Below are positions 1,739-25,217 of a stretch of DNA of 31,794 nucleotides, piece by piece. The position numbers and the translations under genes are program-made. Source of the DNA: an uncultured Eubacteriales bacterium (GTDB lineage Bacteria > Bacillota > Clostridia > Christensenellales > Borkfalkiaceae); assembly GCA_902767455.1 (NCBI GenBank), contig CACXHH010000191.1, positions 1-31,794 of the forward strand, written 5' to 3'. The stretch's first letter is position 1. Every line of letters starts with the position of its first letter. The notes below the pieces were generated by a model. It saw only the letters and a program-made list of their open reading frames with translations, made no database searches and was not told the DNA's origin.

Positions 1739-1759
1739 GCGGGGCTATAAGTCGATAAT
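1739..1759 (+). repeat. Dispersed 20-bp motif copy A (GCGGGGCTATAAGTCGATAAT)
   Basis: 18/20 match to consensus GTCGGGCTATAAGTCGATAA; starts 8 nt after the stop at 1731. Confidence 0.8.
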
Positions 1760-1779
1760 TAGTTTTTTTTGACGATAAA

Positions 1780-1823
1780 AACAGGCTGTTGAGAGCTGAA
1801 TATTCAGCTCTCAACAGCCTGTT
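1780..1823. terminator. Bidirectional terminator formed by a perfect 44-bp palindrome
   Basis: AACAGGCTGTTGAGAGCTGAAT|ATTCAGCTCTCAACAGCCTGTT lies between convergent genes, with A/T tracts on both sides. Confidence 0.85.
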
Positions 1824-1837
1824 CGTTTTTACGCTTT

Positions 1838-3022
1838 TTACGCTTTTTTGTTTTCGGGCAAATACTTTTTAAGCTCGTCGACCATATCGAGTTTTTCCCA
1901 CGAGAAGCCTTCTCTTCCGAAGTGACCGTAAGCGGCGGTCGCTTTATAAATGGGCTCTCTCAAACCGAGCTTATTTATTATCGAGAGCGGACGGAAGTCG
2001 AATTCCTTCGCGACGATTGAAGATATCTCTTCGTCGGGGATAACGCCCGTACCGAAAGTGTCGACGTACATTGAAACGGGCTTTGCTACGCCGATAGCGT
2101 AAGCAACCTGTATCTGAATTTCCTTTGCAAGCCCCGCCGCAACGACGTTTTTGGCTGCGTATCTTGCCATATACGCGGCGGATCTGTCGACCTTGGTAGG
2201 ATCTTTACCCGAGAACGATCCGCCGCCGTGCGGGCAAGAACCGCCGTAAGTATCGACGATTATCTTTCTGCCCGTAAGCCCGCAGTCGGCTTTGGGCCCG
2301 CCGACTTCGAAACGCCCCGTCGGATTGATATAATATTTGGTGTCTTTCGTGACAAGACGCGCGGGTATAACTTCGTTAATGACGTATTTTTGAATATCGC
2401 TCCTTAACTGCTCGGTCGTCACTTTTTCCGAATGCTGACTCGATACGACGACCGTATCCACGCCGACGACCTTTTTTCCGTCGTAAACGACCGTGACCTG
2501 ACTTTTTCCGTCAGGACGGAGATAATCGAGCAGTCCGCTCTTTCTTACGTCGGTCAAACGCTTGGCGAGCTTATGCGCAAGAACGATGGCGGTGGGCATA
2601 TACTCTTCCGTTTCGTCGGTAGCGTAACCGAACATCATGCCTTGGTCGCCCGCGCCAAGCTTGTCGGCAAGTTCGCCGCCGCGCTTGTATTCGAGCGAAT
2701 TGTCTACGCCGAGAGCTATGTCGGGACTTTGGTCCTTTATAGCCGTGATTATGGCGCAGTTATCGCAATCGAAACCGTATTTTGCGCGGTCGTAACCTAT
2801 CTCGCGTATGGTGTCGCGAGCGATCTTCTGAATATCTACGTAACATTCGGTAGTTATCTCGCCCGAGATGACGACCATGCCCGTGGAAGCAAAACTTTCG
2901 CAGGCTACTCTTGCGTTTTTGTCGTTTTTTAAAATTTCGTCAAGTATCGCGTCGGCAATTATATCGCAGACTTTATCGGGATGTCCTTCGGTGACACTTT
3001 CGCTCGTGAAATATTTTAACAT
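1838..3022 (-). CDS. metK: S-adenosylmethionine synthetase
   Basis: [35 protein letters not shown] and AAYGHFGR motifs. Start set at ATG 3022 (AGGAG SD) rather than the ORF-track start at 3043. Confidence 0.99.
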
Positions 3023-3113
3023 TTTTATCTCCTTTATCTCCATAACTGTATTCTTGCTTTCGCAAACGTAAAACGCGAAAACTATTTCGTATAAGTGAAT
3101 ATAACTTTTAATT

Positions 3114-3142
3114 ATTATATCTTGTATTTATTAAAATGTCAA
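3114..3142 (-). promoter_or_regulatory. Perfect sigma-A promoter of metK (TTGACA-17-TATAAT)
   Basis: Minus strand reads TTGACA ttttaataaatacaaga TATAAT. It is back-to-back with the pflX-like promoter. Confidence 0.85.
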
Positions 3143-3149
3143 AGAAAAG

Positions 3150-3178
3150 TTTACAACGTTTATAAAGTATGATAAAAT
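3150..3178 (+). promoter_or_regulatory. Sigma-A promoter of the PflX-like gene (TTTACA-17-TAAAAT, extended TG), 6 nt from the ATG
   Basis: TTTACA acgtttataaagtatga TAAAAT aatatt ATG, with no SD. Confidence 0.75.
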
Positions 3179-3184
3179 AATATT

Positions 3185-4042
3185 ATGCACAAATGTTCAC
3201 TTTGTCCTTTATCGTGCAACGCCGAAAGGGAAAAAGCCGTCGGCGCGTGCGGCGTCGGCGACAAGATCAAAATAGCCAAGTATTATCTTCACCCGTTTGA
3301 AGAACCCGTGATATCGGGCGTTTCGGGCTCGGGTACGATATTTTTTTGCGGTTGCTCGCTTAAATGTTGTTTTTGCCAGAACTACGAGCTTTCGAGAAAC
3401 TTACGCGGCAAAGAAATAACGTCTTACGAGCTTGCCGATATTTTTAAGTTTCTTGAGGACGAAGGCGCAAACAACGTCAATCTCGTATCTCCCACGCAAT
3501 ACTCCGACAAAATTATACAGGCCCTTAAAATTTATAAGCCGAAAATACCCGTGTGTTACAACACTCACGGGTATGAAAAAGTTGAGTTAATCGACTTATT
3601 GAACGACTTCGTGGATATTTATCTCCCCGATTTCAAGTACGTATCGCCTGACAGATCGTTAAGGTATTCGGGGGTAGCGAACTACTTCGAGTACGCCTTC
3701 CCCGCCATTGAAAAGATGATAAAATCAAAGCCTTGCGTTATCGGCGACGACGGGCTTTTAAAGCAGGGCGTTATAGTCCGCCACCTTATTCTTCCGCAAA
3801 ATCTTGACGAAACGCGCAAAGTTTTATCGGCGCTTAAAAGTATAATCGGCGACGCGTATTTATCGCTTATGTCGCAGTATACGCCTTTCGGCGAACTTAA
3901 ATACCCCGAACTAAAACGAAAGATAACGCTTCGGGAGTATAACGCCGCCGTATCGTTCGCCCGCGCCGAAGGTTTTGAAAAAGTATTTTTGCAGAACTTC
4001 TCTTCGCAAAGCACGGAGTTTATCCCAAGTTGGGATTATTGA
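3185..4042 (+). CDS. PflX-like radical SAM protein (pyruvate formate-lyase activating enzyme-related)
   Basis: N-terminal CSLCPLSC, HPFEEPVISG, GTIFFCGCSLKCCFCQN (CxxxCxxC), NVNLVSPT, DIYLPDFKY, VRHLILP and SLMSQYTP motifs. Confidence 0.9.
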   Translation: MHKCSLCPLSCNAEREKAVGACGVGDKIKIAKYYLHPFEEPVISGVSGSGTIFFCGCSLKCCFCQNYELSRNLRGKEITSYELADIFKFLEDEGANNVNLVSPTQYSDKIIQALKIYKPKIPVCYNTHGYEKVELIDLLNDFVDIYLPDFKYVSPDRSLRYSGVANYFEYAFPAIEKMIKSKPCVIGDDGLLKQGVIVRHLILPQNLDETRKVLSALKSIIGDAYLSLMSQYTPFGELKYPELKRKITLREYNAAVSFARAEGFEKVFLQNFSSQSTEFIPSWDY

Positions 4043-4192
4043 CTTTTCTTTTCGATATCAAGTAGCATTTTTGTAAGTTTCGCGCAAGTTTTTGGGCTTG
4101 CGTAGGTCAAAAGCTTTTCTATTTCGTTTTTCGTCAGCATATAAATAATATGCGCCGAAAGCAAATAAATATTTATACTTTAAGGAGTAACT

Positions 4193-4825
4193 ATGTTTCT
4201 CGCAACCGCAATCGAAACGCTCGACCACTCGTGGGCAAGCGTAATGCACGGCATGCAAAGCCCGTTTTTCAACGTGTTTTTCAAATACTTTTCGGTTCTC
4301 GCCGAACACGGACTGATAATACTTGCCATAAGCATTTTACTGTTTTTATTCAAAAAGACGAGAATACAAGGCTCGACGATATTCTTCGCCGTGGCGATCT
4401 CGATAGTTCTCGGGTATCTTGCGAAATTCGCAGTCGCCCGCCCGCGCCCCTTCTGGGACACGCAGACCGACTACTACGAGTGGTGGCTTGCCGCGGGAGC
4501 CGATTACTCTTCGAGCTACTCTTGCCCGTCAGGGCACGCGTGCGTTGCCTTCGCGTTCGCAACCGCGATGCTTATGACCTTCGATAAGCGCTACGGCTGG
4601 ACGGGATTCGTATTCGCGCTCGTAATCGGCGTAGCTAGAACGTATCTTATGCGTCATTACCTTACCGACGTACTTCTCGGACTCGTTTTCGGGCTTGTAA
4701 GCGGCGTTCTCGGTTACTTTGCCGTAGCCGCGATGAAAAGTTTTATTGAAAAACGCCCCGAAGGAAAGTTTTCAAACTTCCTTTTAAACTTCGATCTTAA
4801 ATCTGTTTTTGAAAAGAAACAATAA
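4193..4825 (+). CDS. PAP2-family membrane phosphatase
   Basis: Motifs KxxxxRPRP, SCPSGH and ARTYLMRHYLTDV; several TM helices; AAGGAG SD. Confidence 0.93.
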   Translation: MFLATAIETLDHSWASVMHGMQSPFFNVFFKYFSVLAEHGLIILAISILLFLFKKTRIQGSTIFFAVAISIVLGYLAKFAVARPRPFWDTQTDYYEWWLAAGADYSSSYSCPSGHACVAFAFATAMLMTFDKRYGWTGFVFALVIGVARTYLMRHYLTDVLLGLVFGLVSGVLGYFAVAAMKSFIEKRPEGKFSNFLLNFDLKSVFEKKQ

Positions 4826-4837
4826 AAAAGCATACTG

Positions 4838-4869
4838 AAAGCGGTCGGGTAAAACCCGACCGCTTTTTT
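4838..4869. terminator. Bidirectional rho-independent terminator
   Basis: AAAGCGGTCGGGT-AAA-ACCCGACCGCTTT followed by a T tract, between convergent genes. Confidence 0.85.
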
Positions 4870-4875
4870 CGTTAA

Positions 4876-4895
4876 GTCAGTCTATAACGCGATTA
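4876..4895 (+). repeat. Dispersed motif, degenerate copy B (GTCAGTCTATAACGCGATTA)
   Basis: 15/20 match to consensus; intergenic between convergent genes. Confidence 0.45.
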
Positions 4896-4921
4896 AAAGC
4901 GTTTTTTAATCGGAATAATCG

Positions 4922-5818
4922 TTACTTATTAAAGAATTCAAGTATATCTTCATAGACTTTTCCGTTATCCGTTTCGTTGAGTATCTCGTGGCGCATGCCT
5001 TTATAGGTTATAGCCGAAACGTTTTTAAAGCCCGCGTTTTCAAAAAGTTTTTTGCTTGCGGCTCTGCCCTTTTCGCCGCCCGTGCAAGGATCGTCTTCGC
5101 CGCCCACGAGAAGCACGGGCATATCTTCGTTGACGTCAACGTATTTACCGACCTTGCCCATTTTATTCAGCAAGTGGAAAAGCGCGCTGAACGAGCCGTT
5201 AGTGAACTTGATACCGCAAAGCTCGTCCGCTATATATTTTTGAACGTTTTCTTCGTTTACGCTCAACCAGTCAAGATTCGTCTTTCTGTCCTTTATGGAC
5301 TTGGCGTAAGGCCCTAACGCAAGGGTATACAGCAGTTTTGACGATTTCGTCTTTCCGCTTAAAGCTTTGACTATATTGCCGAGAAAAACCGCGACGGGGC
5401 TTGCCGGGTTGGGATTGACGTAGCCCGACAGCGCGACTTTCGCGTAATTTTTCGATTTCGTCTGCAACAAAACGCGGGAAATTATCGAGCCCATCGAGTG
5501 CCCGAAAAGATACACCGGCAAATCGTTGAAACGCTCTTTGATATACCCGTAAATAGCGTTCTGGTCGTCGATAAGAAGTTCTTCGCCTTTTTTATCGGCG
5601 ATATGCCCGATAAGCGGAGCGTCTTCGCCGTGCCCCCTCAAATCGGAAACGACGACCGAATACCCGTTTTTGCATAAAAATTCGGCGAACGGGTAATATC
5701 TTTCTTTGTGTTCCTGCATTCCGTGAACTATCTGTATCACGGCTTTACCTTCTTCCGCCGCAAAAACGGCAAGCGACAGTTTATATCCGTCGGAACTGTT
5801 TAAAAATAATTTTTCCAT
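4922..5818 (-). CDS. Alpha/beta hydrolase, lysophospholipase / monoacylglycerol lipase family
   Basis: HGMQEHKERY, DLRGHG, nucleophile motif GHSMG, GGEDD and MRHEILNE. ATG 5818 has a GGAG SD. Confidence 0.92.
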   Translation of the reverse strand: MEKLFLNSSDGYKLSLAVFAAEEGKAVIQIVHGMQEHKERYYPFAEFLCKNGYSVVVSDLRGHGEDAPLIGHIADKKGEELLIDDQNAIYGYIKERFNDLPVYLFGHSMGSIISRVLLQTKSKNYAKVALSGYVNPNPASPVAVFLGNIVKALSGKTKSSKLLYTLALGPYAKSIKDRKTNLDWLSVNEENVQKYIADELCGIKFTNGSFSALFHLLNKMGKVGKYVDVNEDMPVLLVGGEDDPCTGGEKGRAASKKLFENAGFKNVSAITYKGMRHEILNETDNGKVYEDILEFFNK

Positions 5819-5840
5819 AATCAACTCCGTTTTATATTGT

Positions 5841-7280
5841 TCAATCTATAAGACAGCGTTTTACCGCGTCAAGCCAAAGTTCGTACGTTTCGTCGTCACG
5901 CGTTTCGGGCAAGAAAGAAAGGAGTTCGCCGCCGCCCTTATACGCGAGCCCGAGCGCCTTCAAGCACATTTTGACCGAGCCGAGCACGGTGGCTTCTTTG
6001 TTGAGCGGAACTTTGACGGGCACTTGCAGCTGGTCCGCCTGAAACTGCATAAGGAATTTGTTTTCGCTTGCGCCGCCGTCGGCTTTGACGAAATCGAGAT
6101 CTATCCCGCTCGCCTGCTGCATTATATCGAAAAGTTCTCTCGCGGCGTACGCCATGGCCTCGAGCGCCGCCCTTACGACGTGCGCCTTTTCGGAGCCGCG
6201 CGTAAGCCCGTAAATAAGCCCGCGAGCTTCGCTCTTCCAGTGCGGAGCGCCAAGCCCCGTAAACGCGGGAACGAAACATACGCCGTTGGTAGAAGTAACG
6301 GAACGAGCGAGCGTTTCCGTTTCGGCGGCAGAAGTTATCATGCCGAGATTATCGCGCAAAAACTTTATCGCCGTACCCGCATTGAATACGCTTCCTTCAA
6401 GCGCGTAAGTCACTTTGCCGTCGACCTTGTACGCTACCGTCGAGATAAGCCCCTTATCGGTATGGCAGATCTTGTCGCCCGTGTTGAAAAGCATAAACAG
6501 CCCCGTGCCGTAAGTGACTTTTGCGCTTCCCTTTTCAAGACAGTCCTGCCCGAAAAGAGCCGACTGCTGATCGCCTATAACGCCCGCTATAGGCACTCTG
6601 TTTCCGCCGAAATCGGCAAAGCCGAACACCTTGTCGTTATCGAGAACTTCGGGAAGTATCTCGCGCGGAATACCGAATATCTTTAAAAGTTCGTCGTCGT
6701 ACGACATGGTATGTATATTATACAGCATCGTGCGGCAGGCGTTGGTGACGTCGGTAACGAAGTTTTCGCCCTTGGTCAGGCGGTAAATGATATAGCTGTC
6801 CACCGTGCCGACTCTGAGCCTTCCCGCTTCGAGCGCCTCGCGGACTTTGGGAACGTTGTCGATCAGATATTTGATCTTACTCGCCGAAAAGTACGCGTCG
6901 ACGACAAGCCCCGTCTTATCGTAAATGAGCCGTTTGGTTTGCGCGGACATTGACTCGCAGAAGTCTTTAGTCCTTCTACATTGCCAGATAATCGCGTTAT
7001 AGAGCGGTTTACGGGTAACGCTGTCCCAACAGAGAACGGTTTCGCGCATGTTGGTAAGCGAGATACCGATAACATCGCCGTCGACCTTGTCGTAAGCTTC
7101 GTTCAAGCACATACGAGTAGACAAGAAAATGTCTTCGGCTTCTTCTTCGACCCAGTCGGGCTTGGGGTAGATCTGGTCGACTTCTTTTTGCTTGACCATC
7201 TGAAAACTTCCGTCGTTCACGTCGTATACGCAGGAGCGGACGGAAGTCGTTCCCACGTCAAGACCTATAATATAACTCAT
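5841..7280 (-). CDS. glpK: Glycerol kinase
   Basis: IGLDVGTTS, AIIWQCRRT, DAYFSASKI, TDVTNACRT, GDQQSALFGQ, KVTYGTGLF, PAFTGLGAPHW and ADGGASEN motifs. Confidence 0.95.
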   Translation of the reverse strand: MSYIIGLDVGTTSVRSCVYDVNDGSFQMVKQKEVDQIYPKPDWVEEEAEDIFLSTRMCLNEAYDKVDGDVIGISLTNMRETVLCWDSVTRKPLYNAIIWQCRRTKDFCESMSAQTKRLIYDKTGLVVDAYFSASKIKYLIDNVPKVREALEAGRLRVGTVDSYIIYRLTKGENFVTDVTNACRTMLYNIHTMSYDDELLKIFGIPREILPEVLDNDKVFGFADFGGNRVPIAGVIGDQQSALFGQDCLEKGSAKVTYGTGLFMLFNTGDKICHTDKGLISTVAYKVDGKVTYALEGSVFNAGTAIKFLRDNLGMITSAAETETLARSVTSTNGVCFVPAFTGLGAPHWKSEARGLIYGLTRGSEKAHVVRAALEAMAYAARELFDIMQQASGIDLDFVKADGGASENKFLMQFQADQLQVPVKVPLNKEATVLGSVKMCLKALGLAYKGGGELLSFLPETRDDETYELWLDAVKRCLID

Positions 7281-7286
7281 ATATAT

Positions 7287-7315
7287 ATTTTACTATATAT
7301 TAAGATACTTTTCAA
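7287..7315 (-). promoter_or_regulatory. Sigma-A promoter of glpK (TTGAAA-17-TAAAAT), 6 nt from the ATG
   Basis: On the minus strand TTGAAA is at 7315-7310, TAAAAT at 7292-7287, then atatat and ATG 7280. No SD. Confidence 0.7.
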
Positions 7316-7329
7316 GACGTTTTTGAAAA
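7309..7329. promoter_or_regulatory. Inverted repeat TTTTCAA-N7-TTGAAAA overlapping the glpK -35 box (candidate operator)
   Basis: Directly visible dyad in the glpK/murG divergent spacer. Operator function is inferred. Confidence 0.35.
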
Positions 7330-7418
7330 TTTATATCAAAGAATATTTTATTTTCTCGCTTCACTCTTTTTTTGACTTTTAAAAATACAAATGACGTTTC
7401 GTATACATAATATATAAT

Positions 7419-8471: not shown

Positions 8472-8496
8472 CTGACGACGTAAGGTGTGATAGTAT
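8468..8496 (+). promoter_or_regulatory. Sigma-A promoter of the WYL regulator (TTGACT-17-TAGTAT, extended TG); the -35 box overlaps the murG stop
   Basis: TTGACT gacgacgtaaggtgtga TAGTAT. A dyad TGATA-N6-TATCA (8488-8503) overlaps the -10 box. Confidence 0.6.
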
Positions 8497-8541
8497 ATTA
8501 TCAAAAATACTGTTTAAGCGCCGACGCGCCAACGAGAAAAG

Positions 8542-11648: not shown

Positions 11649-11835
11649 AAAAACACTCCCGATGAAGAAACGCAAACAGCCTTATCGTGAAATCGTCGCA
11701 TAGGCTTGCCCGCGATCGTGAGCTTTTTTTGCTTCGCCGTCAGGCGTTGATTGAAGCAAATTTACGCGGACTTTTTGCTGTCTTCACTTTAATATAAGTA
11801 TGCACGCACGCATAGTACGCGCTTTAACTTTATAT

Positions 11836-11951: not shown

Positions 11952-14900
11952 TTACTCTTCCGAAACGGGGCATTCGAGCGCGAAAAGCATAAACTTTTCG
12001 GCGAATTCGGCTTGCGCGTTCGCGCCGCCTTCAGCCCTGAGATTTATTACGGGATTGACGTCGAAAGTAAGCACCGCCCCGCCCTTATGGGCGTTGAGCG
12101 CAAGAGTCAGCCTGCCGTCCTTGAAGGAATTTACGTCTTTTATAACGAGCTTTGCTTCGTCCTTTCTCACCGTAAGCTTGATGACTTCGAGCTTTTTAGC
12201 CATGCGTTTGAGCTTGGAAATAAGTATTAAATTTTCAACGTTTGGCGGGAGTTCGCCGTACAATTCGCGTATGGAATCGCGGACGCGGTTTTCGTCGGCT
12301 AAATCTCGTATCTCGGCGATAGCCTTGTACATATCAAGCCTTTGCGCCGAAGAAGTGACGTACCCGTCGGGGATATACGCGTCAAGACGAACGTCGAGCT
12401 CGGTTTCGAATTCCTTAGTCACTTCGCCGAGCTGCTCTTTTAAAAGCCTTGAATACAGTTCGTAACCTATCTTATCCATGTGCCCGTGCTGTTCGCGGCC
12501 GAGAACGTTGCCCGCGCCCCTTATTTCAAGGTCGCGCATGGCTATCTTGTAGCCGCTTCCCAACTCCGTGTATTCCATAAGCGCCGAAAGCCGTTTGTAC
12601 GCAGACTCGGTAAGCACCTTGTCGGGCTTGTAAGTAAAATAAGCGTGAGCCACGCGGTCGCTTCTGCCGACGCGTCCTTTCAGTTGATAGAGCGTAAACA
12701 GCCCGAGCATGTCCGCGTCGATAACGACGAGCGTGTTGGCGTTGGGAACGTCTATGCCGTTTTCGATTATGGTCGTCGCGACGAGAACGTTATATTCCCC
12801 CGCAAAGAAAGCCATTATCTGCCCGTCAAGCATATCTCTGTTCATCTGCCCGTGACCTACGACGACTTTCGCTTCCGGCACGGCGTTTTTGACTTCGTCG
12901 GCAAAAGAATAAATGCTTTCGACGTGGTTATACAGTATAAACACCTGCCCGCCGCGCGCAAGTTCCTTGACGATAGCGTCGCGTATAAGCGTGATGCTCT
13001 CTTCCGTCACGTACGACTGAACGGGTATCCGCTTTTGCGGCGGCGTTAAGATAAGGCTTATATCGCGTATGCCCGAAAGCGACATGTGAAGCGTTCTCGG
13101 GATAGGCGTCGCGCTCATTGTGAGAGTGTCGACGTTGTTCTTCATAACGCGGAGTTTTTCCTTGTGTTCGACGCCGAAACATTGTTCTTCGTCGAGAACG
13201 AGAAGTCCTAAATCTTTGAACGAAACGTCTTTGCCGAACAGACGGTGCGTTCCGATAACGATATCGATCTCGCCTTCCGCTATCTTTTTGACGTTTTCCT
13301 TTATCTTTTTGGGGCTTTGGAATCTGTTGAGCACGCAGCTTCTTATGCCGAAGTGCTTAAATCTGTCGACCACGGTGCGGTAGTGCTGTTCGGTGAGAAT
13401 GGTCGTCGGCGCGACGATGGCTACTTGTTTTCCGTCCATACACGCTTTAAAGCACGCGCGAAGCGCGACTTCCGTCTTTCCGAACCCCACGTCGCCGAGA
13501 AGCAACCTGTCCATTATCTTTTCGCTCTCCATATCGTGCTTTATCTCGGCTATGGACTGTACCTGATCTTCGGTAAGCTCGAACGGGAACTCGTTTTCAA
13601 ACTCGGCGGTCAGCTCGTTATCGCGTGAAAACGCAAAGCCTTTTTTCGTCGCCCTGTCTTTATACAGCTTTTTAAGGTTGACGGACATCGCCGATATCGA
13701 AGCCCTTACCCGCTCTTTCAGCCGCTCGAATTCCCCGCCGCCGAGCTTGCTGAGCATAGGCGCCTGCTCGCCGCCGAGATACTTGGTGAGTTTATCCATC
13801 TGGTCGGTCGGGATATACATAAAATCCCCGCCGGCGTATTCGAGTGCGACGTAGTCTTTACTGCCTTCGGTGGTAGTTATCCTTTCGGTGCCGCGGACTA
13901 TACCTATACCGTAAGTTTCGTGAACGGCGAAGTCGCCCGTCTCGGGCGCCGAAAAGTTTTCGTTGCGACGCTTTTTGACGCGTTTATCCTTGTCTTTTAC
14001 ACCCGATACGAACACGTCGAGCGCGCCTATTACGACGAGCTTTTCGTCGTGAAGGATAAATCCGTCCGAAAAATAGTAATCGGTAGCGTACGCTTTTCCG
14101 TCGGTATCGGCGTTGTCTGTGCAGAGAATTTCCACTCCGCGGGAATACATCATATCTGCCGTAGAGCGGCTTCGTTGCTCGTTTCCGCACGCGATAATCA
14201 CCTTATAGCCCGACTTTTTCCAGTTTTCGACGTCGGTAACGAGATTCTCGGCGTTGCGCTGATACTTTGGCGACGGCATGGAGTTTATGCGCACGGTATC
14301 GAGCGGCGAATAAATCGAAACGGTCGAATTTATATTTTGCATCGAGTGGCACGGAAGCGTTATCTTTTCCGTGACTTTATAATGCGGTACGAGATTTTCG
14401 AGAGTGAAATCGAACGCTTCGCCGGCTTCCATAAGCGACGTAAACCTTGAAGCGTGCTCGCTGTAAACGCCGGAAGCTACGTCGGCTATCATTTTCGGCT
14501 CGTCGTAGAACACGGCTTTACAATCGGTAAATATCCTGAAAATATCGTTGGTGGTATTTTTCAGCAGCGGAATAACGAACGATAAAACAGCGGAAGTATA
14601 GTCGGCGTTGTCGAGCGTGGACATTATTTCGCCGTAAATAGCCGAAGATTTAACGCGAGCGCCCGAAGTTTTAAACTTCTTCTTGCTCTCGGCAAGCCTT
14701 TCGCGGATATATCCGACGTCGTTTTCGTCAATAAAATAGTCTACGGTCGGAAGGCAGAAGAACGAACGGACTTCGTCGCCCGCGCGCATATCCTCGTCGA
14801 TAACGCGTATACGCTCGAGCTCGTCGCCGAAAAAGTCGCATCTATAAGCGGTATCGGAGTTTACGGGATAGACTTCGAGTATATCTCCGCGAAGCGCAAA

Positions 14901-15386: not shown

Positions 15387-15408
15387 TTACGCTTTTAAAA
15401 ATAAAAAA

Positions 15409-15436
15409 GTAGGGCTATAAGCCCGTTAATCGACTT
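15409..15436. repeat. Dispersed motif copy C (GTAGGGCTATAAGCCCGTTAATCGACTT), pth-mfd junction
   Basis: 15/20 match on the + strand plus a partial opposite arm TCGACTT. Contains the hairpin GGGCT-ATA-AGCCC. Lies 2 nt after the pth stop. Confidence 0.65.
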
Positions 15437-15438
15437 TT

Positions 15439-16011
15439 TTACACTTTTGTGTTATAGACGTTCATCAGCCTTTCCGTATCGACGCCTTTGACGAAATCAA
15501 CGGCGCAGCAAGCCGCGCGCTTTATCGCCTTTTCGTATAGCTCGGCTTTGTTTTTCGGGATATTCGATAAAACGTAATCTATCAAAGATATCTCGGGGTC
15601 TTCCTTTTTCGAGCCTATACGTATACGCGCGAAGTCTGTCGCGTTCAGATGAAGAATTATATTGCGCATACCGTTGTGCGTTCCGCCAGATCCTGAAGGT
15701 TTGAACCTTACGGTGCCGACGTCGATGTCGATATCGTCGTATATCACCACGACGTTATTTAACTCGATCTTATAAAAATCGACTACCGCGCGAACGGCTT
15801 CCCCGCTCAGATTCATAAACGTTAAGGGCTTGACGAGAATAACCTTTTCGCCGCTGACGAAAGTTTCGGCGACCAACGATTTGAGCGCCGATTTTTTCGT
15901 GAAATCGCAACGGAGTTCTTCGGCGACGAGATCTATCGCCATAAAACCGAGATTGTGTAACGTTTTTTCATATTCGCGCCCGGGGTTTCCGAGCCCTACT
16001 ACAATTTTCAT
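15439..16011 (-). CDS. pth: Peptidyl-tRNA hydrolase
   Basis: VVGLGNPG, TLHNLGF, KPLTFMNLSGEAV, YDDID, GGTHNGMRNI and RIRIG motifs. Confidence 0.98.
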   Translation of the reverse strand: MKIVVGLGNPGREYEKTLHNLGFMAIDLVAEELRCDFTKKSALKSLVAETFVSGEKVILVKPLTFMNLSGEAVRAVVDFYKIELNNVVVIYDDIDIDVGTVRFKPSGSGGTHNGMRNIILHLNATDFARIRIGSKKEDPEISLIDYVLSNIPKNKAELYEKAIKRAACCAVDFVKGVDTERLMNVYNTKV

Positions 16012-17170: not shown

Positions 17171-17305
17171 CTTAATTTTCGGCAGGTTTTTATTTTTAAA
17201 AAAAGTTTTTACTAAAACGGCTTTTCCGCCTCTTATTCTTTCGCGTAAAAAACAGACGCAAAAATCAAGAAAGCCCGTCTATAACTTCGTTATCATTAAA
17301 ATAGT

Positions 17306-17749
17306 TCAATTTGCGCCCTGCCGTCTGTTTTTGAAAAACTCGGTAAGAATATCAGAACAGCGCTCTTCGTTTTCGAGCTTTTCGACCTTACAGTTCCAGT
17401 TTAAGATAGCGCCGCTTTTCGCAAGCTTATCCGCGCCGCCCGTAGGACCGCTCGCCCCGAAGTAAACTTCGGGTATACGCGCGTTCATTATCGCGCCGAA
17501 GCACATTACGCACGGCTCCACGGTGACGTACATAACGCAGTCGTCAAGCCGCCAGCTTTTAAGTTTTTTACAAGCTTTTTCTATGGCGATAAGTTCGGCG
17601 TGCCCCGTTGCGAGCTGCGTTCTTTCGCGGACGTTGTGAGCTTTCGCTATAACCTTGCCGTTTTGAACTACGACCGCGCCGATAGGTATTTCGCCTTCAT
17701 CAAAAGCTTTGCGCGCTTCTTTATAAGCGACGTCCATAAAATTTTTCAT
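17306..17749 (-). CDS. tadA: tRNA-specific adenosine deaminase
   Basis: EIPIGAVVV, GHAELIAI and YVTVEPCVMCFGAIMNARI (HAE...PCxxC zinc motif). Confidence 0.93.
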   Translation of the reverse strand: MKNFMDVAYKEARKAFDEGEIPIGAVVVQNGKVIAKAHNVRERTQLATGHAELIAIEKACKKLKSWRLDDCVMYVTVEPCVMCFGAIMNARIPEVYFGASGPTGGADKLAKSGAILNWNCKVEKLENEERCSDILTEFFKNRRQGAN

Positions 17750-18222: not shown

Positions 18223-19155
18223 TCAGGCAAACAGATTCGCTATCCATACGGCAAGCGACAACACTAAGCCTATAACTCCCCCTTTCACAAATTCAAACCA
18301 GTTCGTCTTTTCGGGTTTTGAAGGCGCTTTCGTCGAAGTATCTCCAAAGCTTTCGGGTTTTCTTCCGACGAACAGAAGCGCGAACGCAACGGCAAGGCAT
18401 ATAAGCCCTACCGCCATACGTGCGATACCCGCGGGCAATATTGAAAATAACGAAAAATATTCGTTGAGTATGACGAGCAGATTGTTCAGAAAATGTATGA
18501 TTATCGTCGGAACTACGCTCCCGCTTTTGAGCGCGACGAGCGAAAGTATCAAGCCAACCGCAAACTGGTAAAGCGTTTTCGACGGGCTGAGATGGTATAC
18601 CGCAAACAAAGCGGCCGTTACGATAATCGATATATAGCCTGACTTTTTAAGCCCGTTCTGCACTATTCCGCGAAAGAGCGTTTCTTCGAGAACGGGCGGC
18701 AGAACGGCTATTACGACGATAGTCAAAATCAGATTGAGCGGAGAGTATTCGGGAAGATAGGACGGCGTATCGACGTAGCCGAAAAGACCGAGAAATTTGA
18801 TAAACAGTTCGTTAAGCTCGCCGAGCCCGAACAGCACGCCTATCGCCGTGGGGATAATCAAAAAATAGAATTTTTTGTCGATTCTGAATTTAAAATAAGC
18901 CGTTATATCGCCAAAAGACGAGCGGGAAACGAAAACTGTTGCAAGAATCGCAAAAAGAAGCGAAACGCACGGCAGAAAGTAGCTGAAATAAATATATACG
19001 GCGTCCTTTGAAGAAGCGCCGTTAAAGTGTACGATTATTGAAAACACGAGAGAAACGAGCATTACGAGAACGACCGCAAACGAAAACGCAAGTCCGCTCG
19101 TCCGCTCGCTTATTCCCAAAGGTTTGTTGATGGATTTTTTTATATCTCTTTCCAT
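18223..19155 (-). CDS. CPBP (CAAX/Abi-type) intramembrane glutamic endopeptidase
   Basis: PVLEETLFRG (EExxxR), FAVYH and IIIHFLNN motifs; multiple TM helices. Confidence 0.92.
   Translation of the reverse strand: MERDIKKSINKPLGISERTSGLAFSFAVVLVMLVSLVFSIIVHFNGASSKDAVYIYFSYFLPCVSLLFAILATVFVSRSSFGDITAYFKFRIDKKFYFLIIPTAIGVLFGLGELNELFIKFLGLFGYVDTPSYLPEYSPLNLILTIVVIAVLPPVLEETLFRGIVQNGLKKSGYISIIVTAALFAVYHLSPSKTLYQFAVGLILSLVALKSGSVVPTIIIHFLNNLLVILNEYFSLFSILPAGIARMAVGLICLAVAFALLFVGRKPESFGDTSTKAPSKPEKTNWFEFVKGGVIGLVLSLAVWIANLFA
18621..18647 (-). repeat. Dispersed motif copy inside the CPBP gene (AAAAGTCAGGCTATATATCGATTATCG)
   Basis: 16/20 match to consensus, with matching AAAA and TCG flanks. Confidence 0.45.
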
Positions 19156-19187
19156 TAGGATCTGCCTTTTTTAATTAAAAATGCGTT

Positions 19188-19207
19188 TTATCGACTTATA
19201 GCCCGAC
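19188..19207 (-). repeat. Dispersed motif copy E (GTCGGGCTATAAGTCGATAA)
   Basis: This is the copy used as consensus; it abuts the plsY TAA. Confidence 0.85.
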
Positions 19208-19990
19208 TTATTCGTTCTTTTCTCCGTTTTCGCCAACGCTCTTTTCGTCGTCGGAAGAAACTTTTTGCTTCTTGTTTTTAAGTTTCAGATCTTTTATCAT
19301 CTGCCACCAGTTAGTGGGGTGTTCGTCGCCCGACAGAAGCCTTCCGATGTTCTGTCTGTGCGCAAACCAGGTAAGAACGACTATTCCGAGAATAAGCATA
19401 TTTATAACGATAAAATACGTTATCTCGCCGCCGTCGACTTGTACCGACGGCTTGTAGTAAGTGTTGTAAATATCAAGACATGCGTAAATAGCCGGCGGAG
19501 TGGTGGCTAAAAACGAGCCCATCGAGCCTATTCTCGTAACGAAAATAAAAAGTAGCGCGACCACGCCGAAAATTATCGCGATATACCATTCGGTAACAAC
19601 GAAAACGCCTATCGTGGAGGCTATGCCCTTTCCGCCTTTGAAATGCAAAAACACGGGGAAGATGTGCCCGAATACGACGAAGAAGCCCGCAAGGTAGCGC
19701 GTTAAGAGTGTTATCGGGAGCATCGAGCCGGCAAAGAGCTTGTCGCCGAAAATAAAGCCGACCAAAAATGTGGGGATAGCGCCCTTCAAAATATCGAGAA
19801 CGAGTATCAAAAGCCCTATCTTCAGTCCGAAAACCCTGCTCATATTCATCGTGCCGGGATTTCCGCTGCCTTCGTTACGGATATCGCGTTTTAAAAGTTT
19901 TGAAATTATTACGGCGTTGTTGACGTTGCCGAGAAGGTAAGAGCCGATCGCAACGAGAAGCAACACCCACCAACACTGTGAAAAACTCAT
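19208..19990 (-). CDS. plsY: Acyl-phosphate:glycerol-3-phosphate acyltransferase
   Basis: SYLLGNV, DIRNEGSGNPGTMN, LDILKG, GHIFPVFLHFKGGKGIASTIG and HRQNIGRLLSG motifs. Translationally coupled to der (TAA ATG). Confidence 0.96.
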   Translation of the reverse strand: MSFSQCWWVLLLVAIGSYLLGNVNNAVIISKLLKRDIRNEGSGNPGTMNMSRVFGLKIGLLILVLDILKGAIPTFLVGFIFGDKLFAGSMLPITLLTRYLAGFFVVFGHIFPVFLHFKGGKGIASTIGVFVVTEWYIAIIFGVVALLFIFVTRIGSMGSFLATTPPAIYACLDIYNTYYKPSVQVDGGEITYFIVINMLILGIVVLTWFAHRQNIGRLLSGDEHPTNWWQMIKDLKLKNKKQKVSSDDEKSVGENGEKNE

Positions 19991-21307: not shown

Positions 21308-21364
21308 ATATTCTCCGTAAAGCGGCAAAGTATTACGCCGCAAATTGTTGATTTCAGTAAAAAA

Positions 21365-21401
21365 GCCTGCCTATAAATCGATTATCGGCTTATATGTCGC
21401 G
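21365..21401. repeat. Dispersed motif copy F: head-to-head pair (CCTATAAATCGA-TTA-TCGGCTTATA) overlapping the DUF512 stop
   Basis: Arms match the consensus 15/20 (+) and 14/20 (-) and form an imperfect hairpin. Confidence 0.65.
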
Positions 21402-22667
21402 AGTCAAGCCGTCGAAGAAGTCCCCGCCGCCGCACGGCAGAACGCGGACCTTCTTGCCTATCTCGCGCGAGAGTTCGTCTAAGCTCACGTCGTCTAAAAA
21501 GAGCGTTCCTTCGACGTTGAGCATCGCCGAAGATATGGCGAGTTCGTCAAACGGCTTATCGAATTTCCTGACGAAGTTTATTACGTCTTTACCGACTACA
21601 AGCCCCGTACAAGTGACTGTGTTACCGAAAAACTCGTTTTCCACGCCTTCGACATAAACTTTCAACCCCTCGCAATACTCTTCGGCAATACGCGCGTGGC
21701 GCTCGATGAATTTTTTGCTCGCAACGCCCGTAACTATCAAGAAAGTCCTTGTATAACTTCGTTTTTCGAGTTTTTCTTTAAATTCGTGCTCGAACATGGC
21801 GTTCATGCCTATCCCGTTTTCGAGCTGGTCGAACTCCCCGTAAAAAGAGTACGGCTCGACGTCAATATCGGCTTTTAAATAAAAGTCGTCGGCAACGAGC
21901 GCAAAATCGCGTTTTATCGCCGCGTTGAACGCCTTGACTTGTTCTATCACCTTGCGTGAAGAAACAAGGTCGTAATCTTCTATCTTTTCAAGCCCGTCAC
22001 GGAAACGCGTTATCCCGCACGGAACTACCGCGCAAGATTTGACGTTATTTATCGCGGAAAGGTCGTTGAGCGTTTTATCGAGAAGCTCGCCGTCGTTTAC
22101 GCCTTTTACGAGCACGACTTGCGTATGCATTTCGATACCGCCTTCGTCAAGCTTTTTAAGCTGTGACAAGATCTTGTCGGCGAAGCGGTTTTTGAGCATT
22201 TTTTTACGCGTTTCGCCGTCGGTCACGTGCACGGAAATATACAGCGGACTCAACTTCAATCTTACAATACGCTCTATATCTTCGTCCGTAACGTTGGTGA
22301 GAGTGACGTAGTTTCCGCATAAGAAACTCTGGCGGTAGTCGTCGTCCTTGACGTATAAAGTCGGGCGCATGCCTTTGGGCATCTGCGAAACGAAACAAAA
22401 AATGCAGTCGTTACGGCAGGTCTTTATCTCGAGATTGTCGCTTACGAAAGTAAGCCCGAGCGTTTCGTCCACTTCCTTTTCGACTTCGAACTCGACCACT
22501 TCCCCTGCCGACTCGACTTCCATCACGAAATATTCCTGTTCGTCGTAAAAAAGGTAGTCGAGAAGGTCTTTCGCTTCGTGCCCGTCGAAAGAAACGATCT
22601 TATCGCCGATATTCAGTTGTAATTCTTCGCCGAGAGAACCTTCGTCGATAGTTTTTATAGTAAGCAT
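21390..22667 (-). CDS. PDZ + radical SAM + DUF512 protein (TIGR03279-like)
   Basis: N-terminal PDZ-like region, CRNDCIFC (CxxxCxxC), KDDDYRQSFLCGNYVTLTN, SPLYISVH and QLENGIGM. Upstream of der, as commonly seen in Clostridia. Confidence 0.9.
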   Translation of the reverse strand: MLTIKTIDEGSLGEELQLNIGDKIVSFDGHEAKDLLDYLFYDEQEYFVMEVESAGEVVEFEVEKEVDETLGLTFVSDNLEIKTCRNDCIFCFVSQMPKGMRPTLYVKDDDYRQSFLCGNYVTLTNVTDEDIERIVRLKLSPLYISVHVTDGETRKKMLKNRFADKILSQLKKLDEGGIEMHTQVVLVKGVNDGELLDKTLNDLSAINNVKSCAVVPCGITRFRDGLEKIEDYDLVSSRKVIEQVKAFNAAIKRDFALVADDFYLKADIDVEPYSFYGEFDQLENGIGMNAMFEHEFKEKLEKRSYTRTFLIVTGVASKKFIERHARIAEEYCEGLKVYVEGVENEFFGNTVTCTGLVVGKDVINFVRKFDKPFDELAISSAMLNVEGTLFLDDVSLDELSREIGKKVRVLPCGGGDFFDGLTRDI

Positions 22668-22704
22668 AATATCGTTTTTTATCAGTTTCGTATTATAAAA
22701 TATC

Positions 22705-22729
22705 GTCGATTATCGACTTATAGGCGGGT
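22705..22729 (-). repeat. Dispersed motif copy G with a partial second arm (CCCGCCTATAAGTCGA-TAA-TCGAC)
   Basis: 16/20 match to consensus, about 6 nt after the reductase stop; forms the hairpin GTCGA-TAA-TCGAC. Confidence 0.75.
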
Positions 22730-22734
22730 TTTTT

Positions 22735-23841
22735 TTATTCAAACGTCTTCGCTACGTCAACTAAAAGCGCCCTTATGGGGAGCTTCTGCGGACATATCCG
22801 TTCGCACTTTCCGCACTTTATACAGTCACTCGCCTTGCCCTTGCCGACGGTGTGAACGGAATCGTAATAGAAATCGGCGTTCCAGTCGTTGAAGTGCTTT
22901 TTCGCGTTGTAGCACGCGAAAAGATCGGGTATCGAAATACTCTTCGGGCAGCCGTCGACGCAATAGCGGCAAGCCGTGCACGCTATCATATTTTTCCCGC
23001 GTATTATTTTTTTGATACGCTCGGCGGCGGCAAGTTCTTCATCCGAAAGTTTACGGTAATCGGACATAAAACTTACGTTTTCTTCAAGCTGACTCGGCTC
23101 GCTCATCCCCGACAAGACCATCATGATACTGTCGGGCATAGCGGCGAATCTTATGGCAAGTTGCGCCGCGGAAATCCCCAGCTCGTCCGCAACGGCTTTG
23201 GCTTCGGGAATAAGGTTTGCTAAACTTCCGCCCTTTATCGGCTCCATGACGATAACGGGTTTGCAATGTTTTTCGCAAGTTTTCAGGCATTTTCCGCTCT
23301 GCACGGCGATATCGTCGTAATCGAGATAGTTATACTGTATCTGTACGACTTCTATCTGCGGATATTCTGTCATAATTTTATCGAGCACGTCGGCTGTGTC
23401 GTGGAAGGAAATGCCGAAGTGCTTTATTTTGCCTTCTTCTTTGAGCTTTAACGCTTCTTCGTATGCCCGACATCTCTTGAAATGCTCGAAGTTGACTTTG
23501 TTCTGCGAGTGCATAAGATAAAAATCGAAATATTCCACCCCGCAGGTTTTAAGTTGATTTTCAAAAAACGGACGTATATCGGCGTTCGTTTTGAAATATG
23601 GCTCGGTGAGTTTATCCGTTATCGTAAAAGCTTCGCGCGGGTAACGGTCTGAAACGCATTTTTTGAACGCTTTTTCGCTCAATCCGTTATGGTAGCCGTG
23701 AGCCGTATCGAAGTAGTTGAAACCGCTCGCGATAAACTTATCGACCATTGCGTTTAACTTTTCGCAGTCGATCTCCATACCCTTTTTCGGAAGGCGCATA
23801 AGCCCGAACCCAAGCTTGTTTTTAACGTTGAAATACTGCAT
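22735..23841 (-). CDS. Aldo/keto reductase with C-terminal 4Fe-4S ferredoxin domain
   Basis: LGFGLMRLP, YFDTAHGY, YFDFYLMH, HFGISFH and MEPIKGG motifs; CTACRYC...CP and CIKCGKCERICP clusters. Confidence 0.93.
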   Translation of the reverse strand: MQYFNVKNKLGFGLMRLPKKGMEIDCEKLNAMVDKFIASGFNYFDTAHGYHNGLSEKAFKKCVSDRYPREAFTITDKLTEPYFKTNADIRPFFENQLKTCGVEYFDFYLMHSQNKVNFEHFKRCRAYEEALKLKEEGKIKHFGISFHDTADVLDKIMTEYPQIEVVQIQYNYLDYDDIAVQSGKCLKTCEKHCKPVIVMEPIKGGSLANLIPEAKAVADELGISAAQLAIRFAAMPDSIMMVLSGMSEPSQLEENVSFMSDYRKLSDEELAAAERIKKIIRGKNMIACTACRYCVDGCPKSISIPDLFACYNAKKHFNDWNADFYYDSVHTVGKGKASDCIKCGKCERICPQKLPIRALLVDVAKTFE

Positions 23842-23868
23842 AAGTCCCCCTATACGTCGGTTTTAGCG

Positions 23869-24456
23869 TTATTTTGCAAGTTTAAACTCTATTTTTTCAA
23901 ATCTCGTGAGATAATCGCGTTTTCTGCCGGTATCTTCCGTGCGGTCAACGAGAAGTATCGTCAACGCTTCCCAAATAGTGACGGTGGCGGCTATATCCGC
24001 AACGTACGCCGCAATGTCTTTTACGAGCCCGCCGTCCGTCCACAGATGCCCCACGAGAATATTCGCCACGAAAAACGCGACGCCCGTACCTATAAGAATA
24101 AACGCTATCCTGTTCTTTCTCTTTTTAGCCGTTTCACCCGTCTTGTATTGAAGAATAACGTTCTTTTTGAAATTATCGGTAAGCTGTTCCACGGAATAGC
24201 CTTCGAGATCTTTAAAACATACTTCGAGATCTATACGGTACTTTTTGGGAACGGCGTCGACGACGTAATTTATCCAGTCGAAAAAATCGTCGGTAAGAAC
24301 CGGGCGCGCGGTAGCGAAATTATTGTCGAACAAATCGCGCGGCGTATCGTAAATAAGCTTGACGCGCGCGATCTTTTTCTCGTGGTCTATATCGAAATAT
24401 TCGTTCTCGATATTTTCGTATTCGTCTATTATCTTTTTGAATTTATTCTTTGCCAT
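23869..24456 (-). CDS. Hypothetical protein with a soluble N-domain and a C-terminal two-TM hairpin
   Basis: 195-aa ORF fitting between flanking genes. Two hydrophobic segments: IAFILIGTGVAFFVANILVG and IAAYVADIAATVTIWEALTILLV. Confidence 0.8.
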   Translation of the reverse strand: MAKNKFKKIIDEYENIENEYFDIDHEKKIARVKLIYDTPRDLFDNNFATARPVLTDDFFDWINYVVDAVPKKYRIDLEVCFKDLEGYSVEQLTDNFKKNVILQYKTGETAKKRKNRIAFILIGTGVAFFVANILVGHLWTDGGLVKDIAAYVADIAATVTIWEALTILLVDRTEDTGRKRDYLTRFEKIEFKLAK

Positions 24457-24472
24457 GTATATTTTTGCGTGT

Positions 24473-24492
24473 TTATCGCCTTATAGCCCGAC
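24473..24492 (-). repeat. Dispersed motif copy H (GTCGGGCTATAAGGCGATAA)
   Basis: 19/20 match to consensus, 2 nt after the thioesterase stop. Confidence 0.85.
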
Positions 24493-24494
24493 TT

Positions 24495-25217
24495 TTAATT
24501 TTTAAACGTGATCGCGCATCTTGCCGCGACCGCGTTTCCGCTCGATATTTTAAAGTAGGTAGTATTCCCTTCGTTTTTAGCGAAAACCGTTACGGGATAG
24601 CCTTCTCTCGTCTGGTTGAGATAGTGTATCTCGACGCCGCCGATTTTGCGGTCGACAACCTCTTTGCAAGAAGTCGCGTCCACGCAAAAACGGATATACT
24701 CGACGTTGTTTGTGTGATTTGAATAGTCTATCGCGCTCGGCGGCACGTTGAAAGACGAGCGCAGTTCGCCGCCTTCCACGTTAAAGCGAGAAAACGAAAG
24801 CTCTTGCTCGGGCTCGAAGAGAATATTCTCCGTCGGAAAGTTTATATCGGAAATACGCCTTACGCATTGTTTCGCTAAGTCGAGCACGCACATTTCCGTT
24901 CTCGAGTAAACTGCCGTTTCGCCGTCTTCACGGACAAAGGAAGTGTCCACCCAAACGGAAACGTTGCTCACGCGGGTAACGAAGGTTTTTATCGTCAGTT
25001 TTTTCGCCCAGCCGCACGGAAGCGGCGTCTTGATAACGTTTTTCGTAAACACCCAAACGCATCCGAATTTTGAGCGAAGCGACAGATTATCGAACCCGAA
25101 AGTGGCGAAATAATCGCAGATAACGTCCTGAACTATCTTCGCCGCGCCGATAAGAGATAATGCGCCCGTAAAATCGGTTTCGGAAGTAGATATCGTTTTT
25201 TGAACGGAATATTTCAT
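24495..25217 (-). CDS. Acyl-ACP thioesterase (FatA/FatB-like double hotdog)
   Basis: SETDFTGALS, WVFTKN and IDYSNHTNNVEYIRF (D-x-N-x-H-x-N-N motif). Confidence 0.85.
   Translation of the reverse strand: MKYSVQKTISTSETDFTGALSLIGAAKIVQDVICDYFATFGFDNLSLRSKFGCVWVFTKNVIKTPLPCGWAKKLTIKTFVTRVSNVSVWVDTSFVREDGETAVYSRTEMCVLDLAKQCVRRISDINFPTENILFEPEQELSFSRFNVEGGELRSSFNVPPSAIDYSNHTNNVEYIRFCVDATSCKEVVDRKIGGVEIHYLNQTREGYPVTVFAKNEGNTTYFKISSGNAVAARCAITFKN

Follow-up and report, generated by a model that had tools for sequence, protein, structure and literature searches.

To our knowledge, a mechanism has been assigned to genome-wide words that mark a cell's own DNA in no more than two proteobacterial families, and in both a pilus receptor reads them. 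The DNA uptake sequence (DUS) of Neisseriaceae is a 12-mer with the receptor ComP, and the uptake signal sequence (USS) of Pasteurellaceae consists of a 9-bp core with phased AT-rich flanks. The repetitive extragenic palindromic (REP) elements and bacterial interspersed mosaic elements (BIME) of Enterobacteria and Pseudomonas, which occur with the REP-associated tyrosine transposase (RAYT), form hundreds of short dispersed copies at gene 3' ends or between convergent genes and have known protein-binding roles (IHF, gyrase). The cyanobacterial word HIP1 (GCGATCGC) is lineage-wide, lies in coding and non-coding DNA alike and spreads by substitution. Phage pac sites, which are bound by the small terminase subunit TerS, as in SPP1, are asymmetric and several helical turns long, with repeated boxes and phased A-tracts that wrap the TerS ring. 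Here we describe a dispersed word of ~35 nt that shares features with each of these. It was noticed in a 31,794-nucleotide stretch of contig CACXHH010000191.1 (positions 1 to 31,794, hereafter the window) from an uncultured Eubacteriales bacterium of the order Christensenellales, where the original prediction had listed nine copies of an unexplained 20-bp family clustered at stop codons.

Like DUS and USS, the motif is an over-represented, non-palindromic word of double-stranded DNA that occurs on both strands, with in-gene copies that are made by substitution and placed only in tolerated frames, enrichment behind genes, sites that are stable across species, lineage dialects and absence from foreign DNA. 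It differs from them in its length (35 nt versus 9–12), its density (one per 3–7 kb versus about one per kb) and its Bacillota host. Close inverted pairs acting as terminators are a feature of DUS and USS and not of the motif. The reader that defines these systems is also missing, with no type IV pilus or pseudopilus genes found in 23 genomes, and because this defining machine was not found the motif cannot be placed in the DUS/USS family. A literature search on the core string and on uptake sequences in Firmicutes returned nothing relevant.

Alignment of the genomic copies shows a repeat unit of ~35 nt, AAAAG-N5-CTATA(A/G)GTCGATTA-WCG-N4-TTTT, or in a fuller spelling AAAA-G(T)C(S)G(N)-CTATAAGTCGATTA-WCG-N4-TTTT, in which the N5 block is G+C-rich. 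The 20-bp family of the original prediction is a real repeat, with the nine listed copies all at their places, but its true unit is longer, the genome-wide consensus ends in GATTA rather than GATAA, and the number of copies in the window is corrected to 15. Two tandem A(A/T)AAGTCG units lie 12 bp apart within the motif, and A/T blocks recur every ~10.5 bp (at about -8, +3, +12 and +22) over four helical turns, with G+C-rich blocks between them; the A/T flanks of the Pasteurellaceae USS are helically phased as well. Inside the unit the N5 and N4 blocks vary. GTCGA is the usual central pentamer, with CTTCG, GCCCG and CGCGA as recurring alternatives, and minor core variants, such as those at window positions 2355, 17269 and 21741, include CTATAACTTCGTTA (11 exact copies), CTATAAGCCCGTTA (7) and CTATAACGCGATTA (6). 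Because these variants recur with the same flanks, the invariant frame of the motif is AAAAG-N5-CTATAA-N5-TTA. Within the core are TCGA/CGAT and the 9-bp palindrome CGATTATCG, and the motif as a whole is asymmetric. In 159 copies no pair of columns exceeded 0.15 bits of mutual information and complementarity equaled expectation, giving no indication of a hairpin or of covariation, and Rfam and tRNA scans of the window returned no match. All-against-all BLAST of the flanks revealed no longer master element; similarity among copies ends within 35–50 nt, which leaves no room for a longer parent element.

The window is part of a 2.05-Mb, 337-contig assembly (G000), in which the motif is in clear excess over chance. 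With up to 3 mismatches the 20-mer occurs 4 times in the window, compared with 0 in 100 dinucleotide-preserving shuffles, and 42 times in the assembly. The core alone has 42 exact occurrences, 93 with up to 1 mismatch and 160 with up to 2, against 0, 2 and a few for the reversed pattern. The genome scan with a position weight matrix (PWM) that the original prediction had proposed gave 281 copies of at least 20 bits, against 0 in the reversed genome; in coding sequence it gave 156, compared with 0.4 after within-gene codon shuffling, and the copies are not confined to the window. The commonest 12-mers of the genome are those of the 35-nt motif.

The distribution of the motif was determined in 23 genomes of one uncultured Christensenellales genus (G000 and 22 other species) and in 18 other genera of the order; the relatives detected with Der are rumen and gut metagenome-assembled genomes (MAGs). 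All 23 genus genomes carry the motif, with 5–90 exact cores in each of the 22 other species, whereas the exact core is missing from 16 of the 18 other genera and present as a single copy in each of the remaining two, which bears out the proposal of a lineage-specific signal. A second spelling (AGG), CTATAGGTCGATTA, is dominant in some species, and exact core counts of the two spellings (AAG:AGG) range between extremes of 90:6 in G012 and 14:94 in G020; G004, G008 and G017 are among the species in which both dialects are mixed. Counted at 20 bits or more with a single spelling-tolerant matrix, the motif occurs 1.4 times per 10 kb in G000, 3.3 times per 10 kb in the distant genus-mate G017 (793 kb) and 4 times in the 1.55 Mb (0.03 per 10 kb) of the complete sister-genus genome G023. 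No analogous motif of the sister genus was found among its top 12-mers or in 45 orthologous der loci. The G023 genome does contain a lone perfect copy (37 bits; G023:C8:4411-4445, L146:4412-4446) in a 78-nt spacer of co-directional genes, which may have been imported from the motif-bearing genus or may be a seed site of ancestral origin. The density of the motif is halved in compositionally atypical contigs and close to zero in the most atypical ones, and a search of 2.9 million viral contigs (IMG/VR) gave one match, which looks like a chance match in coding sequence.

Comparison of orthologous sites shows that copies inside genes arise by substitution without indels and that the motif is constrained at the DNA level. 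In the gene for glycerophosphodiester phosphodiesterase (GDPD) the motif has turned the ancestral VEKKTIDALKGYKG into LESAAISRLSTYKG with the length unchanged, in G000 and its closest relative only. The copy in a CPBP gene of the window (18613..18647) is kept in the two closest relatives (L001 and L002) although the protein is only ~43% identical, and in more distant species the site has no motif and lacks no 35-nt segment that an insertion would have added, an origin like that of the GDPD copy. The copy in mfd is kept in 23 of 23 genus genomes, where the codons matching the motif are nearly invariant (GGC in 21 of 22, TAT in 23 of 23 and TCG in 11 of 11) and a K/R switch follows the two spellings; outgroup proteins read WAYGGYKVIV or have other residues at this site, and the motif is absent there. 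Of 38 in-gene sites compared between G000 and G017, 18 have the motif at the orthologous residue in both, with a bimodal distribution of scores (at least 25 bits or below 12). The segment spanned by the motif is 0.79 identical, compared with 0.57 for the rest of the gene (15 sites with at least 70% identity), including in proteins that are only 35% identical. In this one respect, that some sites are better conserved than their host proteins, the evolutionary signature is stronger than in known uptake words. For 18 of the 23 unshared in-gene sites there is no indel across the motif. Among 156 syntenic spacers, 4 intergenic sites are shared, 5 are found in G000 only and 22 in G017 only; the spacer between plsY and the CPBP gene carries the motif in sense in some species and in antisense in others, and in further species lacks it. 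In strain-level contigs from other gut metagenomes, which were short, low-depth Logan contigs, the sites were intact and no insertion or indel polymorphism was seen.

The placement of the copies relative to genes follows a preference for position and none for orientation. Intergenic copies in G000 (core with up to 2 mismatches, n = 84) comprise 35 co-oriented and 28 anti-oriented copies between co-directional genes, 17 between convergent genes and 4 between divergent genes. Divergent regions are depleted (p = 0.005), the shares of intergenic base pairs being 70% co-directional, 13% convergent and 16.5% divergent. The clustering at stop codons reported for six of seven intergenic copies stands in the window; genome-wide, 43 of the 63 co-directional intergenic copies are nearer to the upstream stop than to the next start (p = 0.005). 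The impression that the best copies read in the sense of the preceding gene was a small-sample effect (35 versus 28 intergenic, 61 versus 83 in genes). The stop codon at a copy is often a TAA inside the A-tract or inside the core, and many copies, on either strand, occupy intra-operon spacers of 27–52 nt. Of the 281 copies of at least 20 bits, 137 lie between genes or at their edges; of those deep in genes, 61 are in sense and 83 in antisense. In-gene copies are nearly confined to three stop-free frames of the six, neighboring copies are direct or inverted at random, and there is no bias relative to gene strand in G000. A looser count in the 793 kb of G017 (core with up to 2 mismatches and an A-rich flank) gave 176 copies, or one per 4.5 kb, with a Poisson-like spread and a strand skew of 94 versus 73 on the G-rich strand (56%) that is not significant. 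This small skew, together with the missing gene-strand bias in G000, rules out a polar chromosome word such as Chi or KOPS/SRS, and the random orientation of neighboring copies rules out an inverton or a composite transposon.

These properties narrow the options to two, a transfer-linked self-DNA tag, which we favor tentatively, and an architectural binding site within the cell, which is possible and in our estimate less likely. The tag is preferred because the motif behaves as DNA uptake sequences do, with gain by substitution, confinement to tolerated places, long-lived sites and dialects. We infer that a protein reads the motif, that transfer drives it and which machine does the reading. 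The motif would be a genus-specific double-stranded DNA signature of ~35 bp that is read in trans by a sequence-specific factor and has no action on neighboring genes. Point substitutions would write new copies in place wherever they are harmless, that is behind stops, in variable protein segments and in the three stop-free frames, after which constraint on the DNA would have preserved the copies throughout the lifetime of the genus, and the whole set would be able to shift its spelling jointly between AAG and AGG. The drive would be tied to DNA exchange between cells of the genus, with tagged DNA preferentially passed on and recombined. Since the genus has no type IV pilus, the reader would not be a receptor of the DUS/USS type. 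The leading candidate for a reader is the packaging machinery of a conserved cluster of phage-like head and terminase genes resembling a gene transfer agent (GTA), with import predicted to proceed through ComEC and DprA, both of which are present in the genus, ComEC in a short form of ~500 amino acids. Recipients of the Rhodobacter GTA import DNA by way of ComEC, ComF and DprA, without pili.

The cluster is recognized by a Terminase_6N gene of ~480 amino acids that is present once in each of the 23 genus genomes except G012, which has two, and in 39 of 41 Christensenellales genomes, most of them with one. Genes of the TerL_ATPase family occur in only 4 of 23 genus genomes and look like those of ordinary prophages. 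In G017 the cluster is ~10 kb long (L254:7700-17763, G017:C2:167.7-177.8 kb); it is headed by the large terminase gene (TerL) and, besides an 86–94-aa ORF with weak likeness to TerS, contains genes for a P22/SU10-like portal and for a major capsid protein (PHROG E = 5e-63) as well as four further ORFs, and it ends at alanine racemase. A 146-aa regulator-like ORF lies upstream of TerL, and the cluster proteins include genus-specific ones of 191 and 480 amino acids. The sister genus carries the same genes in the same order (G023, L162:2800-10846), and in G000 the terminase locus is at G000:C87:2653-4072. Identity between the two genera is 65% for TerL, 52% for the capsid and 45% for the portal, compared with a proteome median of 44%, and no integrase or lysis genes were seen in the stretch of the cluster that was read. 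The cluster is a head and packaging module of phage origin that is inherited vertically and under selection, and in that sense GTA-like, and it may represent a gene-transfer-agent-like element in Clostridia. The likeness to pac sites and to the Rhodobacter agent (RcGTA) lies in the asymmetric, multi-turn form of the motif with its repeated boxes and phased A-tracts and in such an inherited head/terminase cluster in every genus genome. The cluster carries motif copies at native density, and two ORFs of no assigned family that emerged from the phyletic profiling described below are located in it. In its most specific form this reading makes the tag a pac-like signal of a domesticated phage-like particle inherited vertically across Christensenellales, which would be the first GTA-like system in Clostridia; the terminase would be sequence-specific in this genus, and tagged DNA would be packaged, delivered and imported via ComEC and DprA, producing an uptake-type drive without pili. 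We regard this full chain as speculative and on balance unlikely.

Several observations weigh against a transfer-linked tag. The type IV pilus ATPase (T2SSE, PF00437) was found in 0 of 23 genus genomes compared with 10 of 18 other genera, and the platform protein T2SSF (PF00482) and the prepilin peptidase (PF01478) in 0 of the 4 genus genomes tested, three of which are 96–97% complete; in the sister genus the ATPase, T2SSF and prepilin peptidase genes lie side by side. The conjugation ATPase AAA_10 was likewise found in none of the 23 genus genomes. Phyletic profiling yielded 69 ORFs of G000 that are matched by a homologue within 47% of G017 and by none in G023, and of the 40 that were scanned against Pfam, mostly metabolic, none showed a DNA-binding domain; no reader protein was found. 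The terminase genes of the cluster carry no conserved motif copy: G017 has a copy with 2 mismatches 77 nt past the TerS-like ORF, and contig C87 of G000 has nothing above 13 bits. A pac site is normally a single copy in or near terS, whereas the motif is present in many copies genome-wide. The cluster also occurs in 16 of the 18 other genera, which are without the motif, and therefore cannot alone explain a genus-specific tag. The characterized GTAs that we know of package DNA at random, without sequence specificity. The motif is also less dense than known uptake sequences, at one per 3–7 kb, and at 35 nt far longer than any of them, and its avoidance of promoter regions fits an intracellular binding protein at least as well. 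All genomes compared are MAGs, G000 being 72% complete with 4.4% contamination.

An intracellular site of this kind, a chromosome-organizing protein site being one of the options in the original prediction, would be bound by a genus-specific nucleoid-associated or DNA-bending protein that recognizes the phased A/T blocks and organizes or relaxes the chromosome, with weak purifying selection on each site and no transfer. The ~10.5-bp spacing of the A/T blocks over four turns and the tandem half-sites are as expected for such a protein, and so are the even, orientation-neutral spread along 793 kb of G017, the retention of copies at orthologous places and the absence of uptake or conjugation machinery from the searches. 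The depletion of divergent promoter regions in favor of gene 3' ends and convergent regions agrees with the positions of E. coli BIME/REP sites for IHF and gyrase. However, no candidate protein was found: the genus has a single HU gene, as does the sister genus, with no extra HU/IHF paralogue, and none of the 40 genes scanned among those shared by G000 and G017 and missing from G023 showed a DNA-binding Pfam domain. We know of no nucleoid protein with a motif of ~30 bits at hundreds of sites, and the 10 or more substitutions needed to build a site inside a conserved gene are hard to explain by selection acting site by site. We consider an architectural role possible but rather unlikely on these grounds.

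A selfish short repeat that copies itself without host function, be it a REP/REPIN, a miniature inverted-repeat transposable element (MITE) or a conversion-driven sequence, would account for the restriction to one genus, for the variation from 8 to 108 exact cores among species, for the preference for harmless places and for the differences in presence, absence and orientation within the same spacer. The motif shares with REP elements its hundreds of dispersed copies behind genes, but REPs are imperfect palindromes that are strictly extragenic, often clustered and accompanied by RAYT. The motif shows no hairpin or covariation in 159 copies, has half of its copies in genes (144 of 281 deep within them) and randomly oriented neighbors, and RAYT (PF01797, Y1 transposase) is missing in G000 and in 15 of its 22 genus-mates, the carriers with the highest copy numbers among them, with TnpB sporadic among the carriers. 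These properties rule out a REP element, which the original prediction had entertained. Gain in genes by substitution rather than insertion, the lack of a parent element beyond the ~35–50 nt of homology and the absence of presence/absence indels in strain-level contigs similarly rule out a MITE or a repeat derived from an insertion sequence. The variable N5 and N4 blocks fit a binding site and not copies related by descent, and sites that outlast the divergence of their host proteins are not expected of a selfish repeat either, which we judge to be improbable.

A site of DNA modification or repair, at which a methyltransferase or repair enzyme turns near-matches into matches as has been proposed for HIP1, would be compatible with the spread by substitution, the shifts of dialect and the TCGA/CGAT and palindrome CGATTATCG of the core. 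Known short-patch repair, however, acts on words of 4–8 bp and not on 35 bp; HIP1 itself is an 8-bp palindrome at far higher density, whereas the motif is asymmetric over its 35 bp, and no candidate enzyme came out of the analysis. This explanation has little probability in our view. Marginally less probable still is a classical DUS/USS-type uptake sequence with a competence machine that the searches missed. Here the original prediction of a DNA-uptake-like tag holds for the behavior of the sequence, with all sequence-level hallmarks present, including the dialects, the substitution-made in-gene copies, the long-lived sites and the absence from foreign DNA, and ComEC and DprA are in place. It fails for the machine, since the T2SSE ATPase was found only outside the genus, T2SSF and prepilin peptidase, which the sister genus has, are absent from the four genomes of the genus, ComEC is short and no clear ComEA was found in the genus.

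The least probable explanation is that the motif serves gene expression, as a promoter, a terminator, a site of RNA processing or a mark in the 3' UTR, for although copies lie near stop codons, contain a TATAAG hexamer between AAAA and TTTT flanks and in several cases adjoin hairpin terminators, a sigma-70-type promoter is ruled out by the 35 co- versus 28 anti-oriented copies and by the 4 of 84 in divergent regions that make up 16.5% of intergenic base pairs, an intrinsic terminator by the lack of a conserved stem or covariation and by copies within genes and within 27–52-nt spacers, where termination would break operons, and an RNA or mRNA mark by the lack of a strand rule, the 50:50 orientation to genes, the ~144 copies deep in genes on both strands and the absence of an Rfam match. 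The mRNA-processing or cistron-junction mark offered in the original prediction was rejected for this random orientation to transcription. Rho first seemed absent from the sister genus but is order-wide, and therefore has no link to the motif. The RNA-binding domain of Rho scores much lower in the genus, with E-values from 1e-5 to 1e-20 compared with ~1e-30 elsewhere in the order. A search for a single-subunit RNA polymerase gave no match, but the same search matched no control genome either and is uninformative.

The 15 copies of at least 16 bits in the window, which include all nine listed earlier and add those at 2355, 3577, 6978, 17269, 21741 and 23840, are divided into 9 intergenic and 6 in-gene copies among bacterial housekeeping genes such as mfd, pth, prs, a tadA-like deaminase gene, rlmH, plsY, der and the gene for rubrerythrin. 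The first copy, at 1735..1769 (+, 34.8 bits), begins 3 nt past the TAA of a small ORF at 1510-1731 (+), has the same sense as this ORF, and a hairpin terminator lies beyond it at ~1783-1822. The small ORF, which lies within an apparent gap of 520 nt, encodes 73 amino acids with a hydrophobic N terminus and an acidic, Cys-rich tail behind a good Shine-Dalgarno sequence. An in-gene copy at 2355..2389 (+, 28.3 bits) with the core variant GTATAACTTCGTTA is antisense in a 401-aa ORF at 1838-3043 (-), which we take, on reading by eye, to be a SAM-synthetase-like gene, and another at 3577..3611 (-, 24.2 bits) is antisense in the ORF at 3185-4042 (+). The copy at 4872..4906 (+, 30.2 bits) is intergenic between the convergent genes 4193-4825 (+) and 4922-5824 (-), and that at 6978..7012 (-, 25.2 bits) lies in the same sense within an FGGY kinase gene at 5841-7280 (-). 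An ORF of 695 amino acids at 9588-11675 (-), which scores highly as coding sequence and matched no Pfam family, was read in the original prediction as a PrsA-like lipoprotein.

The mfd copy occupies 14184..14218 (-, 27.0 bits), where it encodes WKKSGYKVII, and a further copy at 15405..15439 (+, 34.1 bits) falls between the stop of pth and the start of mfd, in antisense to the two genes, with a weak reverse arm at 15416-15450. The intergenic copy at 17269..17303 (+, 29.0 bits, core CTATAACTTCGTTA) is antisense to the deaminase gene 17306-17749 (-), from whose stop codon it is 2 nt away. The copy at 18613..18647 (-, 16.9 bits) encodes KKSGYISII in the CPBP/Rce1-like gene, and the consensus copy at 19177..19211 (-, 37.1 bits) occupies most of the 52-nt plsY-CPBP spacer, with the plsY stop codon in its A-tract. 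At 21361..21405 (+, 38.4 bits) a copy lies upstream of der and overlaps the radical-SAM stop codon, antisense to both genes, with a weak reverse arm of 6.1 bits, and within the radical-SAM/DUF512 gene (-) an antisense copy is found at 21741..21775 (+, 25.8 bits). The highest-scoring copy, at 22699..22733 (-, 40.3 bits), is intergenic and begins 1 nt past the stop of an aldo-keto reductase gene in the same sense; that at 23840..23874 (+, 30.9 bits) spans the 27-nt spacer between the ORF 23869-24456 and the reductase gene in antisense, and the last, at 24462..24496 (-, 31.7 bits), is an intergenic copy that fills a 38-nt spacer and overlaps the stop of an acyl-ACP thioesterase gene. As first reported, there is no copy in the remaining stretch from 25300 to 31794, which has 55% G+C compared with 47% for the genome and is probably acquired DNA. 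This motif-free stretch encodes a protein of 1238 amino acids that has a GLUG motif and another of 632 amino acids that resembles GDSL lipases.

A second repeat family was observed in G000, an intergenic module of ~110 nt with 31 copies, often in tandem, on contigs C112 (L221:1500-4000), C232, C3, C92 and C143 (L222-L225). Its basis is a hairpin, TTAACACTTTTTC-loop-GAAAAAGTCGTTA, adjacent to TATAAT-like boxes that immediately precede genes, and on C112 its neighbor is an array of small hairpins with ATATAAC between them. The module has no Rfam match at the gathering score, and an adjacent stretch matches Gut-1 RNA below threshold (39.4 versus 50 bits).

With this case the two proteobacterial families with self-DNA words are joined by a Bacillota lineage in which the word is much longer, sites outlast the proteins in which they lie and the lack of pili is documented. 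An uptake-like signature is present in a gut and rumen Bacillota genus that has lost type IV pili. One outcome would be that another route of DNA transfer, for which a phage-derived particle is the candidate, may exert the drive otherwise known from pilus-mediated uptake; the other would be that tags of this kind may serve a chromosomal function. In either case the tag offers a practical marker for binning and for the detection of foreign DNA in MAGs of this genus.

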